DNA from: a virus
Lineage: Duplodnaviria; Caudoviricetes
DNA: 64,000 nt
Virus record (IMG/VR): IMGVR_UViG_3300035208_008180
Direction: 5' to 3' (one strand)
The translations under genes and the position numbers were made by a program. Under the pieces are notes generated by a model. It was not told the DNA's origin. It was given only the letters and a program-made list of their open reading frames with translations, and made no database searches. Shown here piece after piece: positions 10,023 to 29,651 of this stretch (its first letter is position 1; each line of letters begins with the position of its first letter).

Positions 10023-10447
10023 TAAAAATTTCCTTCTGTCATGGCTTTGACAAATGCTTTTGCCATCACCATCCCGCCAGTTGTGGGAACAAATCTCGCA
10101 ATTGGTGAATAAAAATCAGGATTGTTGGAAAAATGTGGATCAATACTACCTTGTGCCAATAAATCCGCCACTGTTCCCTCAGCATAGACCAAGATTTTTA
10201 CACCCTCAAAGTTTGTGCAATCAGGATATTTAATCCTGACAATCAAAAATTCTCCAATTTGTTCCGAATATAAAATCTCAAAATTCTTTGGATTAGGATT
10301 CGGAAATTTCTTTTTTGCCTTCCTCCTCCCCTGTGTTTGCACCTGACAAGTCTCTGGTGATTGCTGCTGGTTACAATTGCAATATACAACCGTTGGCTTA
10401 TCGTATGAAGAAGAACTGCCACCAAAACCAAGTCCCATGATTAGCAT
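10022..10447 (-). CDS. Hypothetical protein
   Basis: AGGAGG RBS; YPDCTNFEGVKILVY...DPHF. Confidence 0.65.
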   Translation of the reverse strand: MLIMGLGFGGSSSSYDKPTVVYCNCNQQQSPETCQVQTQGRRKAKKKFPNPNPKNFEILYSEQIGEFLIVRIKYPDCTNFEGVKILVYAEGTVADLLAQGSIDPHFSNNPDFYSPIARFVPTTGGMVMAKAFVKAMTEGNF

Positions 10448-11865
10448 GCCTCCTTTTGTAATTTAGCATCCCTGCGAGCTTTCTTTAATCTATTCGAACA
10501 ACTTACAGAGCAGGTTTCGTGAGTTGCTTTGCGTTTGGTGTACACTTTTTTACACACCAAACAACGAGCCGTTTTTTTTGCCACTGAAGCTTTGAAACAT
10601 TCTTGGCTGCAAAATCTTGATTGGGCTTTTGTTCTTGCATGAAACTTTTGACGACAAAATTCACAACAGTAAATTGGCCACGATTGTTTTCGACATTCTT
10701 CACTGCAATACTTGGCACCATTTGATTGTTTGGAAAGAATCTTAAATATATTGCCACAAATTTTGCATTTCTTTTTTGTCAAAAGTCCTTTTGCCGATGC
10801 CTCTACATTCTCTTTCTTTAACTGTTGGATTTTATAATAATCAGTGTTCCAACACTTTTTACTGCAATACATTTGTGTGGCATAATTTACGCCAAATTCT
10901 TTTTTGCAACAAATGCAAATTCTTTTGTTTTTTCCACGTTTTCTGTGTTTTTCTGCCCACCAAGCATTACAACATTTTTTTGAGCAAAATAATGAAATAT
11001 AGGATTTTGGCTTAAATATATTCCCACAATTCTTGCAGGGACGTGGATTCAGCAGTTCTGGGAACTTTCGCCTCACCAAGCTTTTGCATTTTACACTACA
11101 ATATATCTTTCTAGAGGTTGGTACATCAAACACGTTTCCACAAATACATATCCTGCGTTGCTCTAGCCACCGCAACACTTTTTTCAAACGTATGCGAATT
11201 GCTTCTTTGGTTAGTCCTAATTCATCGCCTATCTCTTTAAGGGTCATTCTGCGACCCTTCAAACCGTAATATCGAAAAAGGACATCTCTGTATTTTTTAG
11301 GTATTTGTTTACGACGCACTAAAGACAACACTTCGTCAACCTGTTTTGCAACTTCGCTTTGTTGTCCTCTGTTAATATTATCAATTGGCTCTAAGGTTTT
11401 GTCTTCTTCAATACAACAACTAAAAGACCCAACAGTTTTTACTTTATTTATTTGTTGAAGAAGGGCTTCGTCTTTTGAAGATATTTCTTCTTTATCTTGA
11501 GATAGCCGAAATGCTCTTTTGTTTGCCCATTGCGGGATATAAATAATTTTTTTCTGAGCACGGGCATCATTTATAGCATGTTCAACCGCTGTGCTGACAT
11601 AAGTTGACAGCTTTGCTGTGATTCCATCCCAATGATCTACAGCACGACATATGGCTATGCTGGCTTCTGTTAAAAACTCATCATCTATTTCTTTGCCCTT
11701 ACAGGCGTCTCTTACTTTGCTAAACGCTAGACGCAAACAAGATTCGATGAGCTTGTGTCTTGCTTCTTGGTTGCCTGCCTTTGCTTTTGGAAGCAATTCC
11801 AAACACTCTTGATGACTTAGTATTTTGACATGTTTTAAATCATTTAAATAAGCATCAATATCCAC
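10441..11865 (-). CDS. Sigma-70-family factor fused to six C-terminal CxxC...CSxxC Zn-finger repeats
   Basis: Region 1.2/2 (AYLNDLKHVKILS...EARHKLIESCLRL) and region 4 HTH (MTLKEIGDELGLTKEAIR); GTG start at 11865 after AGGAAG. Confidence 0.85.
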   Translation of the reverse strand: MDIDAYLNDLKHVKILSHQECLELLPKAKAGNQEARHKLIESCLRLAFSKVRDACKGKEIDDEFLTEASIAICRAVDHWDGITAKLSTYVSTAVEHAINDARAQKKIIYIPQWANKRAFRLSQDKEEISSKDEALLQQINKVKTVGSFSCCIEEDKTLEPIDNINRGQQSEVAKQVDEVLSLVRRKQIPKKYRDVLFRYYGLKGRRMTLKEIGDELGLTKEAIRIRLKKVLRWLEQRRICICGNVFDVPTSRKIYCSVKCKSLVRRKFPELLNPRPCKNCGNIFKPKSYISLFCSKKCCNAWWAEKHRKRGKNKRICICCKKEFGVNYATQMYCSKKCWNTDYYKIQQLKKENVEASAKGLLTKKKCKICGNIFKILSKQSNGAKYCSEECRKQSWPIYCCEFCRQKFHARTKAQSRFCSQECFKASVAKKTARCLVCKKVYTKRKATHETCSVSCSNRLKKARRDAKLQKEAC

Positions 11866-11900
11866 AATAAACTTCCTTGTGTTTGTATCATCTTGCAGAG

Positions 11901-11976
11901 TAGCACCAGGGGGATTCGAACCCACCACTACCCAGTGTTTAAAACTGGTGACTTCTGCCAATTGGTCTATGGTGCC
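11901..11976 (-). tRNA. tRNA-Leu(TAA), short variable loop
   Basis: CCAGT-TTTAAAC-ACTGG; G1-U72; A73. Confidence 0.85.
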
Positions 11977-14432: not shown

Positions 14433-14505
14433 TGGTAGGGGTCGGAGTCGAACCGACACTTCCACGTTTTCAGCGTGGCACTCAGACCAGCTAAGTTACC
14501 CTACC
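14433..14505 (-). tRNA. tRNA-Phe(GAA)
   Basis: CCACG-CTGAAAA-CGTGG; GGTTCGACTCC. Confidence 0.9.
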
Positions 14506-14956
14506 TCATTCCATCATGTATTTCTCTATGACAATTACTACAAACAAGCACACATTTTTTTACTTCTTCGATAAGTTTGTCCCAACGTGCTAACATTCCT
14601 TTGCTGGAAAATCCAAAACTTTTTTCTTGTTTTTCATCCATGTTTTTGTGATGAAACTCAAGAGCCTTCATACAACGATTATACCCACATTCTGAACAAG
14701 CACCGCCACACATTTTGACTAATTCAATCTTTCTGTTCTTTCTGGCTTTTCTTTGCCATTTTTTATATTTTTCATTATCACGCTTTCTTTTTTCTTCAGT
14801 TGTTAGCGGGATATGTTGAATTTCTAGTTTTTTTGTGTTGCCACAACCAAAAGGCGAACATTCAAGGCAATATTTGCGATTGTGCAGGTTTCTTATTTTT
14901 CCATCTATTTTAAGTTTTGATGGGAACTTTTTTTTACATAATTTACATAATGGCAT
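14501..14956 (-). CDS. HNH endonuclease-like protein
   Basis: CSECGY...LEFHH...KCVLVCSNCHREIH. Confidence 0.8.
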   Translation of the reverse strand: MPLCKLCKKKFPSKLKIDGKIRNLHNRKYCLECSPFGCGNTKKLEIQHIPLTTEEKRKRDNEKYKKWQRKARKNRKIELVKMCGGACSECGYNRCMKALEFHHKNMDEKQEKSFGFSSKGMLARWDKLIEEVKKCVLVCSNCHREIHDGMR

Positions 14957-15030
14957 AGTTTTTCTCCTATGCTATTATGTAGTAAAGTAGTATCAAAAAA
15001 TCCAACTTTTTTAGGCTACTTTTTCCTCAG

Positions 15031-15123
15031 TGGGAAGTGACGGAATCGAACCGCTCAAAGTCATACCACCCCAAATTCTTTAACGACTAACAGATTTACA
15101 GTCTGCCTTGGGGAACACCTCCC
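15031..15123 (-). tRNA. tRNA-Tyr(GTA)-like RNA lacking a D arm, with an enlarged V arm
   Basis: Acceptor GGGAGGT/ACTTCCC-A; GCAGA-CTGTAAA-TCTGT; GGTTCGATTCC; only 10 nt between acceptor and anticodon stems. Confidence 0.75.
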
Positions 15124-15127
15124 ATTT

Positions 15128-15283
15128 TGGTTCTCAGTGTGTTATTACACCAAAGGCAAGAGCGACAATACACACTCTTTGCGACACCCAGTATTGTTCT
15201 TTCCAGGTGATTGCTTTTCGCCACGCAGCTAACGCTACCACTCTTTAAATGCTGGACACTCCTAATCCCACATCCTGAGAACC
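15128..15283 (-). ncRNA. Unknown ~156-nt multi-helix structured RNA
   Basis: Closing stem GGTTCTCAG/CTGAGAACC plus nested helices; spaced 3-4 nt from the flanking tRNAs. Confidence 0.65.
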
Positions 15284-15286
15284 AAG

Positions 15287-15368
15287 TGTGCCGAGCCGGA
15301 ATTGAACCGACAAGTCCCGAAGGAGTCTCGTTTACAGCGAGGTGGGCCTGCCAATGCCCAATCGACAC
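15287..15368 (-). tRNA. tRNA-Tyr(GTA)
   Basis: CTCG-CTGTAAA-CGAG; V arm with TTCG loop; A73. Confidence 0.9.
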
Positions 15369-15370
15369 AT

Positions 15371-15733
15371 TTATTTTTCTTTCAAGTAACCTTTTTCCTG
15401 TGCGTGTTTGTCACATAGGGTTTTAACCCAACCATTTTTGTTCGTGTGCCTACATCCTTGTTCACCACAAACTTCGCAAATATGATATGAATCTCTTTCT
15501 GCCTGTTCAATTAAATTTAGAACAGAATGAACATCCCCGCCACCAGTGTCAATTGAGTAGTAGAACCTAAGTCCTCCAAATTTTTCTTTTATTTGCAGAA
15601 CTTTTAAATCCACCTTATTGGCACGAATCGCCGTAAACAATCGATCTACAAGATCATTCCAACCTTCCGCTATGGCAATTTCCACATAGCCTGTTGCTGG
15701 GAAAAACTCAGGATATTTTTCCTTGAAATTCAT
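15371..15733 (-). CDS. Phage hypothetical protein (QIKEKFGGLRFY family)
   Basis: Motif plus C-terminal CEVC...LCDKH. Confidence 0.7.
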   Translation of the reverse strand: MNFKEKYPEFFPATGYVEIAIAEGWNDLVDRLFTAIRANKVDLKVLQIKEKFGGLRFYYSIDTGGGDVHSVLNLIEQAERDSYHICEVCGEQGCRHTNKNGWVKTLCDKHAQEKGYLKEK

Positions 15734-16044
15734 TTCTTTTTACCAAAAATTTTCTTGTGGGCTTGCATGTATTTGTTTGTTCTCTCTGCCCAATCTTTTA
15801 TGATTGCTTCAATTTTATTTTGTGAAACCCTTGTTCCAATCAACGCATCCGTTCCCTTGTATTGGCCAGCATAACGATGGTGTTTCGTAAGCATATTTGC
15901 TAGTTCATCTGCCAAAAGTGTAGCATCATCCAAATCCTCTCTACAACCAGCCGCCTCTATTTTACCATTAGTATGAACCGCATAAGCATAATAAAGTGGC
16001 GGGCATTGTTTATCAACATACACTTGTGGGTTCCAACGGGGCAT
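15730..16044 (-). CDS. Hypothetical protein
   Basis: Operon packing. Confidence 0.55.
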   Translation of the reverse strand: MPRWNPQVYVDKQCPPLYYAYAVHTNGKIEAAGCREDLDDATLLADELANMLTKHHRYAGQYKGTDALIGTRVSQNKIEAIIKDWAERTNKYMQAHKKIFGKKK

Positions 16045-16047
16045 TTT

Positions 16048-16365
16048 CTATTCCTGTATTTGCTTGATAACCATGAAATGTTGTTTTTTGCCGATTCGAA
16101 TTATTCCCCATCCTGGCCAAATGAATTTAACCAGCGATTCAGGATCGGTTACTTTTTCGCCATTCCAAGACAAAGAACCTTCTTTAACTTTGCGTCTAAC
16201 TTCACTGATGCTTGGTAAGGCACCGCCATCAACACAAATCTGTGCTATTTTTCCATCCTGCACTGTTTTAGGACGCATCCACCACCACATGCTGGCAAAT
16301 GTTTCTTGACAAACAGCCTTGGGCTTGTTTAGTATTTCCCATAATTCATCAAATGTCAACATCAT
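16048..16365 (-). CDS. Stand-alone S4-like RNA-binding domain resembling the TyrRS C-terminus
   Basis: SISEVRRKVKEGSLSWNGEKVTDP...IIRIGKKQHF; GGAG RBS before ATG 16365. Confidence 0.7.
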   Translation of the reverse strand: MMLTFDELWEILNKPKAVCQETFASMWWWMRPKTVQDGKIAQICVDGGALPSISEVRRKVKEGSLSWNGEKVTDPESLVKFIWPGWGIIRIGKKQHFMVIKQIQE

Positions 16366-16379
16366 AATTTCTCCAAAAG

Positions 16380-16468
16380 CGGAAGTGACTAGAATCGAAC
16401 TAGCACTGGCTTTGACACCAGAACGGTTTAGCAAACCGCCGCAACAAACCAATATTTGCCTCACTTCC
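16380..16468 (-). tRNA. tRNA-Ser(GCT)
   Basis: GCGGT-TTGCTAA-ACCGT; long V arm; G73. Confidence 0.92.
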
Positions 16469-17310: not shown

Positions 17311-17339
17311 ATTATACTTCAGTTTTTTTGAATTGTAAA
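17311..17339 (-). promoter_or_regulatory. Sigma-70-type promoter of the leader/tRNA operon
   Basis: TTTACA-17 nt-TATAAT. Confidence 0.8.
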
Positions 17340-17351
17340 GAGGGAAAACAG

Positions 17352-17392
17352 AAAAATTTCACCCGCCCCCATTTATAGGGGGCAGATGAAAT
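17352..17392 (-). terminator. Intrinsic terminator insulating the tRNA operon from upstream genes
   Basis: ATTTCATCTGCCCCC/GGGGGCGGGTGAAAT stem plus T run. Confidence 0.7.
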
Positions 17393-17402
17393 CAGATCGG
17401 TA

Positions 17403-17984
17403 TTATTTACCGCAACCGCACCCGCCATCGCAATTGGCTTTACGGTATGGAGGCAAAACAGCCTTTACGGCCTTGCCTGCGACTTTTACAGATTTACGCA
17501 CTGGTTGAGCCGCAACAACGGCTTTCACCGGACCAGCAACGGCTGCACAAGCTGCCGGGGCACAAGCCTTGACAGGGGCACAAGCTGCTGGAGTATTTTC
17601 GCAACAACGTCTTCCCAAAAGCGGTCGCTCCACTCTTACTCGAACGACTCGGACTTTTTGGGTGGCAACAGGAGCACACGCTGCTACTGGGGCACACGCT
17701 GCTGGAGCACACGCCTTTGGTGTACAAGTCTTCGGGGTACGTACTTTTTTCACCCGAACAACTTCCTTCACTACCACTCTCTGACAAACCGCTGGGGCAC
17801 ACGCCTTGACGGCTTCACAAGCCTTAGGGGTAACCACCACCGGAGCGACTGGCGTACAAGCTGCTGGGGCACATGCCTTGACAGGCTCACAAGCCCCGCC
17901 AGTCCTGACTCTTGATGCCTGTGCAACCGAGCACATAGCAACCAAAGCCACAACACAAACTAAAGCGATAAAACGCTTCATCAC
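17403..17984 (-). CDS. Secreted Cys/Ala/Pro-rich repeat protein
   Basis: Signal peptide ending AQA; repeated (K)ACAPAAC units; AGGAGG RBS. Confidence 0.75.
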   Translation of the reverse strand: MMKRFIALVCVVALVAMCSVAQASRVRTGGACEPVKACAPAACTPVAPVVVTPKACEAVKACAPAVCQRVVVKEVVRVKKVRTPKTCTPKACAPAACAPVAACAPVATQKVRVVRVRVERPLLGRRCCENTPAACAPVKACAPAACAAVAGPVKAVVAAQPVRKSVKVAGKAVKAVLPPYRKANCDGGCGCGK

Positions 17985-20825: not shown

Positions 20826-21764
20826 TTATTTGAAAAATTCTTCTGGTTTTGCAAATTCCATACCCAATCGGGTGGCAAAAGTTCTGTCGCTGGTAGAATC
20901 TCCGACAAAAATGCATTTTTGTGGGTTGAGTTTCCAACTCTCGATTAGTTGCACCCCCATCCCACTCGCTGGCTTTCTGCAATAGCAAGTCGGCGGCACA
21001 TAATGTGGGCAAATAACCGTTTCAGCAATCACCCCATCCAACAATTTATTGGTGCGTTCAATTGCTGCCAATGCGTTCGCTGCCGTGACCGTTCCTTTTG
21101 CGATTCCCGATTGGTTACTGGCAGCCAGCACCATATAACCATCTTTTTTGTATTTTTGCAATACCTCTTTTCGCTTTGGAAGAATCACAACCTCCTCTGG
21201 AGAGGTAGGGTATGGCTCGGGACTTCCAGAGGGAGTGGATCGCACCGTATCATCCAAATCACAAATAATCGCCTTACCAGCGTAGGCTGATGAGCGACGA
21301 ACAAAAGGAATTTTTTTGACACTGGTAAATCCCTCACCAGTGGTCGGTTTTTGCAATTCTTTGCGGTATCGGAAAAACACAGCAATGGGAAACATATTAG
21401 GGTCTTTAACATCCTTCAAAGACTCAGGCGTTAAAAATAATTTTCCATAACGCTCCCACATGCGATGCAACGCATTGATAATTGCATCTTCAATACTGGT
21501 GCTCATCCATTGACAATGAATATCTGCCCCATGTTTTTTAGCAGCGACAATAAAAGGTGCCCTGCCCAATTCTGTGGCAAATAAATTGTCAATAACGATA
21601 TTTTGTTTGGCTTGCAAGGCTGCCTCGAAGGCAGGCAACAGGTCTATGACCTTGCCACCGGCTTTGTCCCGATTCAAATAAGTATATCCCTTGTCGGCAA
21701 AGCCTTTGGAAACCGTGCTTTTGCCTGATGCTGGACAACCACAAACCAAAACCACTTCTGACAT
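20826..21764 (-). CDS. Polynucleotide kinase/3'-phosphatase (PseT/PNKP-like)
   Basis: P-loop GCPASGKST plus HAD domain DLDDT...SNQSG...CRKP...VGD. Confidence 0.85.
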   Translation of the reverse strand: MSEVVLVCGCPASGKSTVSKGFADKGYTYLNRDKAGGKVIDLLPAFEAALQAKQNIVIDNLFATELGRAPFIVAAKKHGADIHCQWMSTSIEDAIINALHRMWERYGKLFLTPESLKDVKDPNMFPIAVFFRYRKELQKPTTGEGFTSVKKIPFVRRSSAYAGKAIICDLDDTVRSTPSGSPEPYPTSPEEVVILPKRKEVLQKYKKDGYMVLAASNQSGIAKGTVTAANALAAIERTNKLLDGVIAETVICPHYVPPTCYCRKPASGMGVQLIESWKLNPQKCIFVGDSTSDRTFATRLGMEFAKPEEFFK

Positions 21765-28666: not shown

Positions 28667-29592
28667 AATCCCAATGTCGAAAGTGTCCACTTGTCGCCAA
28701 AATATTTTTTTATATACAACCTAAGCTCGGCAGCATCATTTGCTGTTTGCAAGGTTTTCAGTGGCTCATCATTACTGCCACTCGTGAAATCAGGGTATTT
28801 CTTGGACTCTTCGCACAACTTGACGGCTCTTGCAATTTGCCACTGCATAAATGCTTTAAAATCAACATCCTTGGAGTCCACCTTGTAAATGAGACAGAGT
28901 GCCAAATTGTTAAATTCCATCATAAACTGCACAGTGTCTGCTCTCCGTCCCCAATTCCACTTACCAGTAGCCGCTAAATCTATTCCTGTTTCTGATCCAT
29001 TAGTGTATGCTACAAATTCATCTATTAAGTAAAGTGGTTCATTATTCCAGCCGCCACCACGCAACATTTTGCTACACAAGGTTTTGCAGACGCCAAGCTT
29101 GGGGTCTGGCTTCATCATTGCAACTTTTTTGGACTGCATGTTGATAACGTAGTTCTTGTACATCAATCCACGTAGTGATTTTGGCACTACTTTGGCTATT
29201 TCGGACAAGGTGGTACTCGGCTCAGGCAGAACTACAGCTTTGTTGTCAAAACAATAAAATGCATTTATTTTGCCCTGGCTGGAGTACTTCATTCTAACAT
29301 ATGAATTAATTCCGTGGGTATCTTCATGGGCATTGGTGACACGATCAGAATCGCCGTAGGGGTGTCCTTTAGGCAAGTGGCTCTCAAGATCATTCAATTT
29401 ACCCTCACGATTGGTGACTTGCCTGACTGGGGGATATTCTACCCATTTTGGCGTTATTTCTACTATTGGTTCTGGCTTCGGCGGCACTGGCTCTACATGA
29501 ATATTGGCTGGTTGCAAATAAAAATATACACCAACACCGCACAGCAATAATACAGCCACAACGACCACAAGAATACCAATTAGTTTATTCAT
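28663..29592 (-). CDS. Membrane-anchored protein with an HExxH (zincin-like) motif
   Basis: N-terminal TM helix; AHEDTHG and a downstream DE. Confidence 0.55.
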   Translation of the reverse strand: MNKLIGILVVVVAVLLLCGVGVYFYLQPANIHVEPVPPKPEPIVEITPKWVEYPPVRQVTNREGKLNDLESHLPKGHPYGDSDRVTNAHEDTHGINSYVRMKYSSQGKINAFYCFDNKAVVLPEPSTTLSEIAKVVPKSLRGLMYKNYVINMQSKKVAMMKPDPKLGVCKTLCSKMLRGGGWNNEPLYLIDEFVAYTNGSETGIDLAATGKWNWGRRADTVQFMMEFNNLALCLIYKVDSKDVDFKAFMQWQIARAVKLCEESKKYPDFTSGSNDEPLKTLQTANDAAELRLYIKKYFGDKWTLSTLGF

Positions 29593-29651
29593 AATTTGCC
29601 CCTGTATCTTATTTAGATGGATCAAAATAAATATCAGACATCTATATATTA

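Follow-up and report, generated by a model that had tools for sequence, protein, structure and literature searches.

The window, the whole 64,000-nt stretch of DNA analysed here, corresponds to positions 224001-288000 of a 340-kb phage contig (C200) that has 40% GC, 65 tRNA genes and one tmRNA gene, and that also encodes a tail sheath, many HNH endonucleases, a sigma factor and a Pnkp-like protein. Relatives of the tail sheath are only 58-60% identical, and no close cultured relative was found. C200 was binned in a MAG of ~70% GC (assembly 6.2 Mb), and the presence of a huge-phage contig in such a MAG looks like binning contamination. Beside C200, ~19 further contigs of the same MAG are <50% GC; its other large contigs have ~70% GC. 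Within the tRNA array, the following features succeed one another on the minus strand, the strand of all genes around them.

15287 to 15368, minus strand: upstream canonical tRNA-Tyr(GTA), matched by ARAGORN and Rfam
15283 to 15128, minus strand: the whole element, 156 nt, RNA 5′-end at 15283, a member of the phage GAC-mimic RNA family described below
15032 to 15123, minus strand: downstream non-canonical tRNA-Tyr(GTA), a weak tRNA-clan match

A sequence-only reading had placed a discrete, structured non-coding RNA at 15128-15283, between the two tRNA-Tyr genes and as tightly spaced as the tRNAs themselves. All of this is borne out, with the RNA on the minus strand in the same orientation as the tRNA array. 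Gaps of 3 nt and of 4 nt (plus one A) separate its 5′- and 3′-ends from the upstream and the non-canonical tRNA-Tyr, respectively, and its minimum free energy on the minus strand is -54.4 kcal/mol, compared with -40.9 +/- 4.0 for shuffled sequences (z = -3.4); both strands of the element beat shuffles in folding. ARAGORN and the Rfam tRNA clan are silent across 15128-15283 with regard to T, D and anticodon arms, and no Rfam 15 family matches this interval, at the gathering score or at E ≤ 10, in keeping with the earlier view of the RNA as one outside the known families. Model searches find a single copy of the element in C200.

No terminator-like site was found on the minus strand from 17355 to 14300. 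The best promoter-like site (11/12 matches) lies, with a 16-bp terminator-like hairpin, upstream of the tRNA block at 17311-17412, minus strand. Also on this strand are a Pnkp-like polynucleotide kinase/phosphatase gene of the tRNA-repair type near the tRNA array (20826-21764), an ORF in which sigma-70 regions 2 and 4 are fused to HNH endonuclease-like segments (10441-11961) and an 817-aa ORF with a major vault protein shoulder domain (PF11978, 3.9e-24) and repeat domains (PF17795), which is unusual in a phage (61116-63569). The non-canonical tRNA-Tyr (15032-15123) was overlooked by ARAGORN; it is without a D hairpin, and a 5′-proximal CCCCAA can pair with UUGGGG in its 30-nt variable arm. Near-identical copies, with a handful of substitutions, are present in two related loci, L087 and L088.

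These loci were obtained by collecting relatives of the neighbouring proteins from a large protein collection and screening their contigs for the element. Both have the same order of tRNA-Tyr, element and tRNA-Tyr, and the element is 87% identical between the window and its homologue whereas the upstream protein is only 64% identical. In a more distant syntenic relative, L085, tRNA-Tyr is directly followed by tRNA-Phe, with no element, no second tRNA-Tyr and no HNH gene, so the block of 120-aa gene, element, odd tRNA-Tyr and HNH gene acts like an indel or cassette (14501-16464, minus strand, versus L085:1-1300). In viral contigs, exact patterns of 23-27 nt from the element and the neighbouring tRNA had no match, the S4-domain neighbour had no relatives and the 120-aa neighbour was found at 80 loci, none with the element. 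Relatives of the HNH gene lie in tRNA-rich loci that are without the element.

[quoted passage not shown] The element is a free-standing copy of the GAC, consisting of the top of H42, H43 and H44 (E. coli 1047-1112). The sequence-only reading had found in it none of the signatures that it knew, and was mistaken in this, as the core is a near copy of the uL11-binding domain. In E. coli numbering the parts are as follows.

15275 to 15283, minus strand: P1 5′-strand, GGUUCUCAG, 23S 1047-1055 (H42 above kink-turn 42), pairs with 15129-15137
15249 to 15273, minus strand: H43-like hairpin, AUGUGGGAUUAGGAGUGUCCAGCAU, 23S 1057-1081, holds the '1067 loop' and U1072
15240 to 15248, minus strand: junction, UUAAAGAGU, 23S 1082-1090
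15151 to 15239, minus strand: extra domain, 89 nt, between U1090 and G1091, ends UUUG
15225 to 15238, minus strand: P3 hairpin of the extra domain
15213 to 15221, minus strand: P4 of the extra domain, GAAAA loop
15185 to 15209, minus strand: P5 of the extra domain
15192 to 15197, minus strand: P5 loop strand ACAAUA of the kissing helix, pairs with 15165-15170
15156 to 15182, minus strand: P6 of the extra domain
15165 to 15170, minus strand: P6 loop strand UAUUGU of the kissing helix, pairs with 15192-15197
15139 to 15150, minus strand: H44-like hairpin, GUGUAAUAACAC, 23S 1091-1102, with G1091-C1100, U1092-A1099 and hexaloop GUAAUA
15129 to 15137, minus strand: P1 3′-strand, CUGAGAACC, 23S 1104-1112

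P1 is followed by A15128, then AAAU and then the next tRNA, and the 89-nt insert is made up of 85 nt plus the conserved UUUG.

A covariance model (R1) built from two sequences, the window element and that of L087, scores 190 bits on the window element. In the 6.2-Mb assembly it matches only the element and the GAC of the MAG's own 23S gene, which lies 3′ of tRNA-Ile and tRNA-Ala, and with filters off its sole significant match in the E. coli rrnH operon is 23S 1047-1110. A second model (R2), in which the core helices alone were specified, is based on 15 members, none of them the window element or another of its subfamily; it finds the window element at 83.3 bits (E 1.7e-14) with ends exactly at 15128-15283 on the minus strand, and it also matches E. 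coli 23S 1047-1113, the MAG 23S gene and all of the cultured-phage members. Searched through the whole assembly, R2 finds the element and the 23S GAC and nothing else.

At the level of individual bases, 28 of 36 in the window are the same as in E. coli 23S 1052-1087, and the Smith-Waterman score against rrnH is 37, compared with 22 +/- 2.1 for dinucleotide shuffles. The order of helices and the non-canonical oppositions are those of the bacterial GAC, and the junction UUAAAGA and the hexaloop GUAAUA are exactly E. coli 1082-1088 and 1093-1098, respectively. Where H44 departs from E. coli it does so by compensatory changes, 1090-1101 from A-U to U-A and 1092-1099 from C-G to U-A, and alongside the latter U1072 replaces the E. 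coli C. With the element as query, blastn gave no match among phages or E. coli genomes, the similarity being too short for databases of such sizes.

The U/U-A state of 1072/1092/1099 also occurs in natural 23S genes. A metagenome scan identified 23S genes with U1072, U1092-A1099 and GUAACA in which this stretch runs AAAGAGU|GUGUAACAACUCAC. This corresponds to the phage core minus its insert, and these variants place the insert exactly between U1090 and G1091. Natural 23S genes with U1072, U1092-A1099 and the GUAACA H44 loop were seen at L207, L209-L225 and many other metagenome loci, including a 0.1-um groundwater fraction. The metagenome anchor scan was rejected as a measure of abundance because the majority of its matches are natural 23S genes. 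The element itself differs from a 23S gene in several respects. It stands alone in a phage and is flanked by tRNAs, its short, perfect P1 stops at 1047/1112 and leaves out kink-turn 42 as well as the lower H42, it has the 89-nt domain at 1090/1091, and A1067 and 1095-1097 are unconserved in its family. In E. coli, Kt-42 is located at ~1043-1048 (PMC1919483).

None of the predicted pairs is broken by the ~20 differences between the window and L087; both partners have changed in four pairs, and four others have changed by wobble. This pattern argues for the terminal stem and for a series of local hairpins, among them the H43-like hairpin with three compensatory changes. A larger alignment (A4) of the seven-sequence subfamily (window, L087, L109, L110, L106, L108 and L129) gives a full structure of P1, H43, H44, P4, P5, P6 and a 6-bp P5/P6 loop-loop helix that is 96% paired, compared with 34-46% for slid controls, with 22 pairs changed on both sides. 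P4, P5 and P6 are 84-100% paired in A4 with compensatory changes. All six pairs of the kissing helix are 100% paired and three of the six have changed on both sides, ACAAUA/UAUUGU in the window being replaced by UCGUUA/UAACGA in relatives. Of the helix set put forward in the sequence-only reading, the outermost helix GGTTCTCAG/CTGAGAACC was correctly drawn and is P1, and the six pairs of ACAATAC/GTATTGT are real, but form a pseudoknot, a kissing contact between the loops of two hairpins, rather than a nested helix. Three other helices of that set are refuted: AGGAGTG/CGCTCTT and TCCAG/CTGGA are disrupted in L087, and TGTG/CACA draws on strands that are part of the H43-like and H44-like helices. 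The GTAGC-GTTA-GCTGC hairpin is plausible; it is unchanged between the window and L087 and, being invariant there, lies beyond a covariation test. A role as a CsrA sponge was rejected as the loop GGA motifs are missing in L087.

A family of phage RNAs with a common core

The window element belongs to a large and unnamed family of phage RNAs that is not in Rfam 15, and a full-text search of the literature found no description of such phage RNAs. A first search anchor, the junction and H44 hairpin (1081-1089 and 1091-1102), yielded 18 viral contigs, 17 of them with full-length matches, and a second, the H43 3′-strand and junction (1071-1090) with H44 unconstrained, yielded 79 contigs. After de-duplication there are ~70 members of 105-422 nt. 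All have, in order, P1, H43, the junction, an insert, (U)UUGGUGU-NNN-A(A/G)CACAC and the P1 3′-strand, with inserts that range from 37 to 354 nt and are at the same site throughout. The window element has this arrangement, with P1, the H43-like hairpin, a UUUAAAGAGU junction (1081-1090), the insert and (U)UUGGUGU-NNN-AACACAC.

Across 62 distinct cores, P1 is 92% canonical, compared with 34-50% for shifted partners, and all four Watson-Crick types occur; pair 1058-1080 is 100% paired, again with all four types, and there are compensatory variants at 1062-1076, 1063-1075 and 1064-1074. The non-canonical U1060/U1078 and N1061/A1077 oppositions are as in rRNA. The search anchors account for part of the apparent invariance, as one covers 1071-1090 and the other 1081-1089 and 1091-1102, and invariance of the junction in the 62 cores is not independent evidence since both anchors specified most of 1082-1089. 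G1091, U1092, G1093, U1094, A1098, C1100, A1101 and C1102 are, however, invariant in members obtained with the anchor that lacks this region. Relatives in phage contigs and in isolated phages keep the fold through compensatory changes, and structural conservation, the lack of which, together with that of a discrete transcript, the sequence-only reading had named as fatal to its proposal, is strong. Position 1067 is A or G in a ~50/50 ratio, with G also in the long forms, and 1095-1097 vary (1095 is A in 94%) while the fold-forming bases are fixed. Position 1061 is mainly A or G, and U1061A is a substitution that has been used to stabilise the GAC fold (PMC1802607).

Positions 1072, 1092 and 1099 co-vary as U/U-A(G) or C/C-G, with no exception seen. 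The U/U-A(G) state is found in metagenomic members, including the window (U1072, U1092-A1099), and in Ralstonia RSP15; the C/C-G state is found in Pseudomonas pf16, Cronobacter GAP32, Pectobacterium CBB, Xanthomonas XaC1, Aeromonas 4_4572 and Vibrio 2.275.O. The members from isolated phages were found by blastn, with 1072, 1092 and 1099 unconstrained. A base triple of 1072 with 1092-1099 in the GAC was reportedly described by Conn, Gutell and Draper in 1998, and this is presumably what the three-way covariation corresponds to.

That the element might be the defunct remnant of a 23S gene captured from a host, perhaps with a degenerate intron, is suggested by the natural U1072/U1092-A1099/GUAACA 23S genes that equal the phage core without its insert. 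Decay is, however, scarcely credible as an account of ~70 diverged members that retain the fold by compensatory changes, that have a P1 unrelated in sequence to H42 in every case and that carry the insert at one site. The insert is, in addition, structured and covarying, and no intron family matched: intron models found nothing in the window, where the insert is merely 89 nt, and in 14 related long loci the only Rfam matches were tRNA and tmRNA.

One record was rejected as a family member, Paenibacillus phage Pd_22F (L205; MZ092003, 83277-84712), because it contains a real 23S fragment of Firmicutes type, with the GAC and H42 running into H41-H45; host DNA or an assembly artefact is possible. 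Two short 'Staphylococcus phage' records, with matches of the same query range and identity as that of Pd_22F, are probably to be rejected likewise.

The long forms (about 360-440 nt; Lak megaphages and L119) share with the window element the core of P1, H43, junction and H44, the insertion site and location in tRNA arrays. They differ in the insert. A sarcin-ricin-loop (SRL) hairpin, AGUACGAGAGGA, with ≤2 changes and covarying flanking stems, is present in the insert of all 11 members of ≥374 nt, and for three long inserts the best local 23S alignment is to H95. In the window, a search for AGUACGAGAGGA with up to two substitutions had no match in the element, and the 89-nt insert has a kissing two-hairpin module in place of the SRL hairpin, as also in L087, L106, L108, L109, L110 and L129. 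Smith-Waterman comparisons of inserts with other rRNA regions revealed none but the SRL, in the longest forms. At the other extreme, minimal members are 105-106 nt (L133 has 105 nt) with an insert of one hairpin, and these, together with the SRL-less element of the window, indicate that the GAC copy is the constant unit of the family. The short form suggests that a GAC copy without the SRL is a sufficient functional unit to which the insert adds a swappable accessory module. In mid-sized and long members (L148, L184, L119, L198) the insert starts (G/U)NCGAG and ends CCCUUAGAG-N-(A/C)UUUGG, and in many such members GGGGAAGGACAAG-like and GGGCGAAGCC motifs are common to the inserts. This recurrence suggests that a larger fold is conserved among these inserts.

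In every case the element has the same orientation as its neighbours. A tRNA gene lies within ≤3 kb in 48 of the 70 members and a same-strand tRNA within ≤30 nt in 25 of the 70; in L109, L110 and L115 the element is between tRNA-Thr and tRNA-Gly, with spacing of 2-5 nt, and in pf16 it is between tRNA-Asn and tRNA-Pro, at about 29,413-29,606 of NC_041881. The GAP32 copy is at about 289,513-289,761. No protein is a constant neighbour that might serve as a partner, with only HNH-type proteins recurring. None of the cultured-phage copies checked is annotated, as each lies in a gap of the annotation or in a record that has none. The 'acceptor-like stem plus A' that the sequence-only reading had picked out is not a feature of the family, in which the base after P1 varies and a same-strand tRNA is so close in that minority of members.

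With their tRNA-like spacing these RNAs resemble the T4 species 1 and 2 RNAs (rnaC and rnaD), stable RNAs at the end of a phage tRNA cluster, and the element might likewise be a tRNA-like or spacer element with a sole role in processing of the tRNA array. The near-identity with the GAC and the 1072/1092/1099 covariation are, however, left unexplained by such a role, many members have no nearby tRNA and, whereas T4 rnaC ends in a tRNA-like T arm, the element has none, so that we regard this explanation, already disfavoured, as very improbable. As relatives, rnaC and rnaD were rejected because neither R1 (filters off) nor R2 had a significant match in the T4 tRNA region.

Predicted role of the element

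From the conserved GAC fold, binding of uL11 and a decoy role are most likely, and we put at about 0.55 the probability that the element is a stable non-coding RNA from the tRNA array that, as a copy of the GAC, is bound by host uL11 as an off-ribosome decoy. It would be co-transcribed with the phage tRNA array from the minus strand, and its position suggests release by RNase P and tRNA 3′-end nucleases, with 3′-processing of the upstream tRNA-Tyr generating the 5′-end of the element and the RNase P cut at the 5′-end of the downstream tRNA-Tyr its 3′-end. The ends would then fold as the GAC, with a 9-bp stem (top of H42), H43, the UUAAAGAG junction and H44, and an 89-nt accessory domain of four hairpins, two of them kissing, would branch off between U1090 and G1091; the bases that form the tertiary fold of the rRNA are kept in the element. 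Such an RNA would bind host uL11 off the ribosome in the manner of the isolated 58-nt rRNA domain, leading to titration of uL11 or to competition with ribosomes for whatever recognises the GAC site. Isolated GAC RNA is known to bind the L11 C-terminal domain (PMC1802607).

Genes for L10, L11, L12 and RelA/SpoT were looked for in the phage contig and none was found, so that any partner of the L10/L11/L12/RelA kind would be host-encoded, and binding of uL10 is doubtful as kink-turn 42 is missing. In rRNA, A1067 and the 1095 loop contact factors and thiostrepton. With fold-forming bases fixed while A1067 and 1095-1097 are relaxed, uL11 is favoured over translation factors, but the conserved fold-forming bases fit any ligand that reads the GAC fold, uL11 among others. 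With 89 nt inserted at 1090/1091, the geometry of H44 could be disturbed, and a phage gain from titrating uL11 is speculative.

An RNA that copies an rRNA protein site off the ribosome has precedents in the leaders of r-protein operons, such as the L10(L12)4-binding rplJ leader and L1-binding leaders, which mimic the rRNA site bound by the protein (PMC10931766). These leaders are, however, cellular, copy a small motif and act in cis, on the message for the protein that they bind, whereas the element is free-standing, phage-encoded and a copy of a whole domain; r-protein genes are absent from the contig and from the region 3′ of the element, and no Rfam leader matched at E ≤ 10. The rRNA mimicry known so far has been of small motifs in r-protein mRNA leaders. 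Here, whole functional rRNA domains have been copied into stand-alone phage RNAs, and GAC-mimic RNAs are kept by selection across very different phages, including the culturable pf16 and GAP32. Should binding of uL11, or of some other stalk-base ligand, be borne out, these RNAs would represent a new viral route to manipulate or shield the translation machinery and would offer structural studies compact GAC scaffolds of natural origin.

Partners other than uL11 come into consideration because the longest relatives have a copy of the SRL, which points to imitation of the whole factor-docking site, and a GTPase, RelA or a toxin might then be the partner. A mimic of this site could sequester or mis-activate a translational GTPase or RelA, for example by damping a stringent response to a flood of uncharged phage tRNA. 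The family is linked to large tRNA arrays, long relatives unite GAC and SRL copies, and oligonucleotide mimics of both rRNA elements are said to bind EF-G (Munishkin and Wool, 1997). We nevertheless consider such a function quite unlikely, as the window member is without the SRL, 1095-1097 vary and position 1067, a nearly invariant A in rRNA that contacts factors and tRNA, is G in half of the family, including long forms.

A decoy might alternatively be directed at effectors of the host or of competitors that attack the GAC, such as RNA ADP-ribosyltransferases or nucleases, much as phage tRNAs out-compete tRNA-cleaving defences. A toxin for exactly this site exists, Tre23, which ADP-ribosylates H44 at 1095-1098 with a minimal region of 1043-1123 (PMC8661411). 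SRL-cleaving VapC toxins are cited in the same report (PMC8661411), and the long forms add the SRL, a classic toxin target. A1098 and G1093 are invariant in the family, A1095 is 94% A and the element is in a tRNA array beside the Pnkp-like gene of tRNA-repair type. A decoy for such effectors is still unlikely: 1096 and 1097 vary, the reported substrates of Tre23 are ribosomes and purified rRNA, and there would be tens of thousands of ribosomes to out-compete. We know, furthermore, of no anti-phage system that targets the GAC.

A broader proposal, which we advance only tentatively and hold to be rather less than an even chance, is that phages of many lineages make free-standing RNA replicas of the factor-docking site, with the GAC alone in short forms such as that of the window and with GAC and SRL together in long ones. 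Along with host uL11, these replicas would form a pseudo-ribosomal particle that intercepts, in the course of infection, a ribosome-directed host response, either activation of the stringent factor or a ribosome-targeting defence effector. If true, rRNA mimicry would constitute a previously unknown class of viral counter-measure.

The tRNA genes on either side of the element may have a separate connection with host defence. According to a report on Septu (PMC13096335), this defence system cuts the variable loop of tRNA-Tyr, which may have a bearing on the duplication of the tRNA-Tyr genes and on the TyrRS-like S4 domain encoded at 16048-16365.
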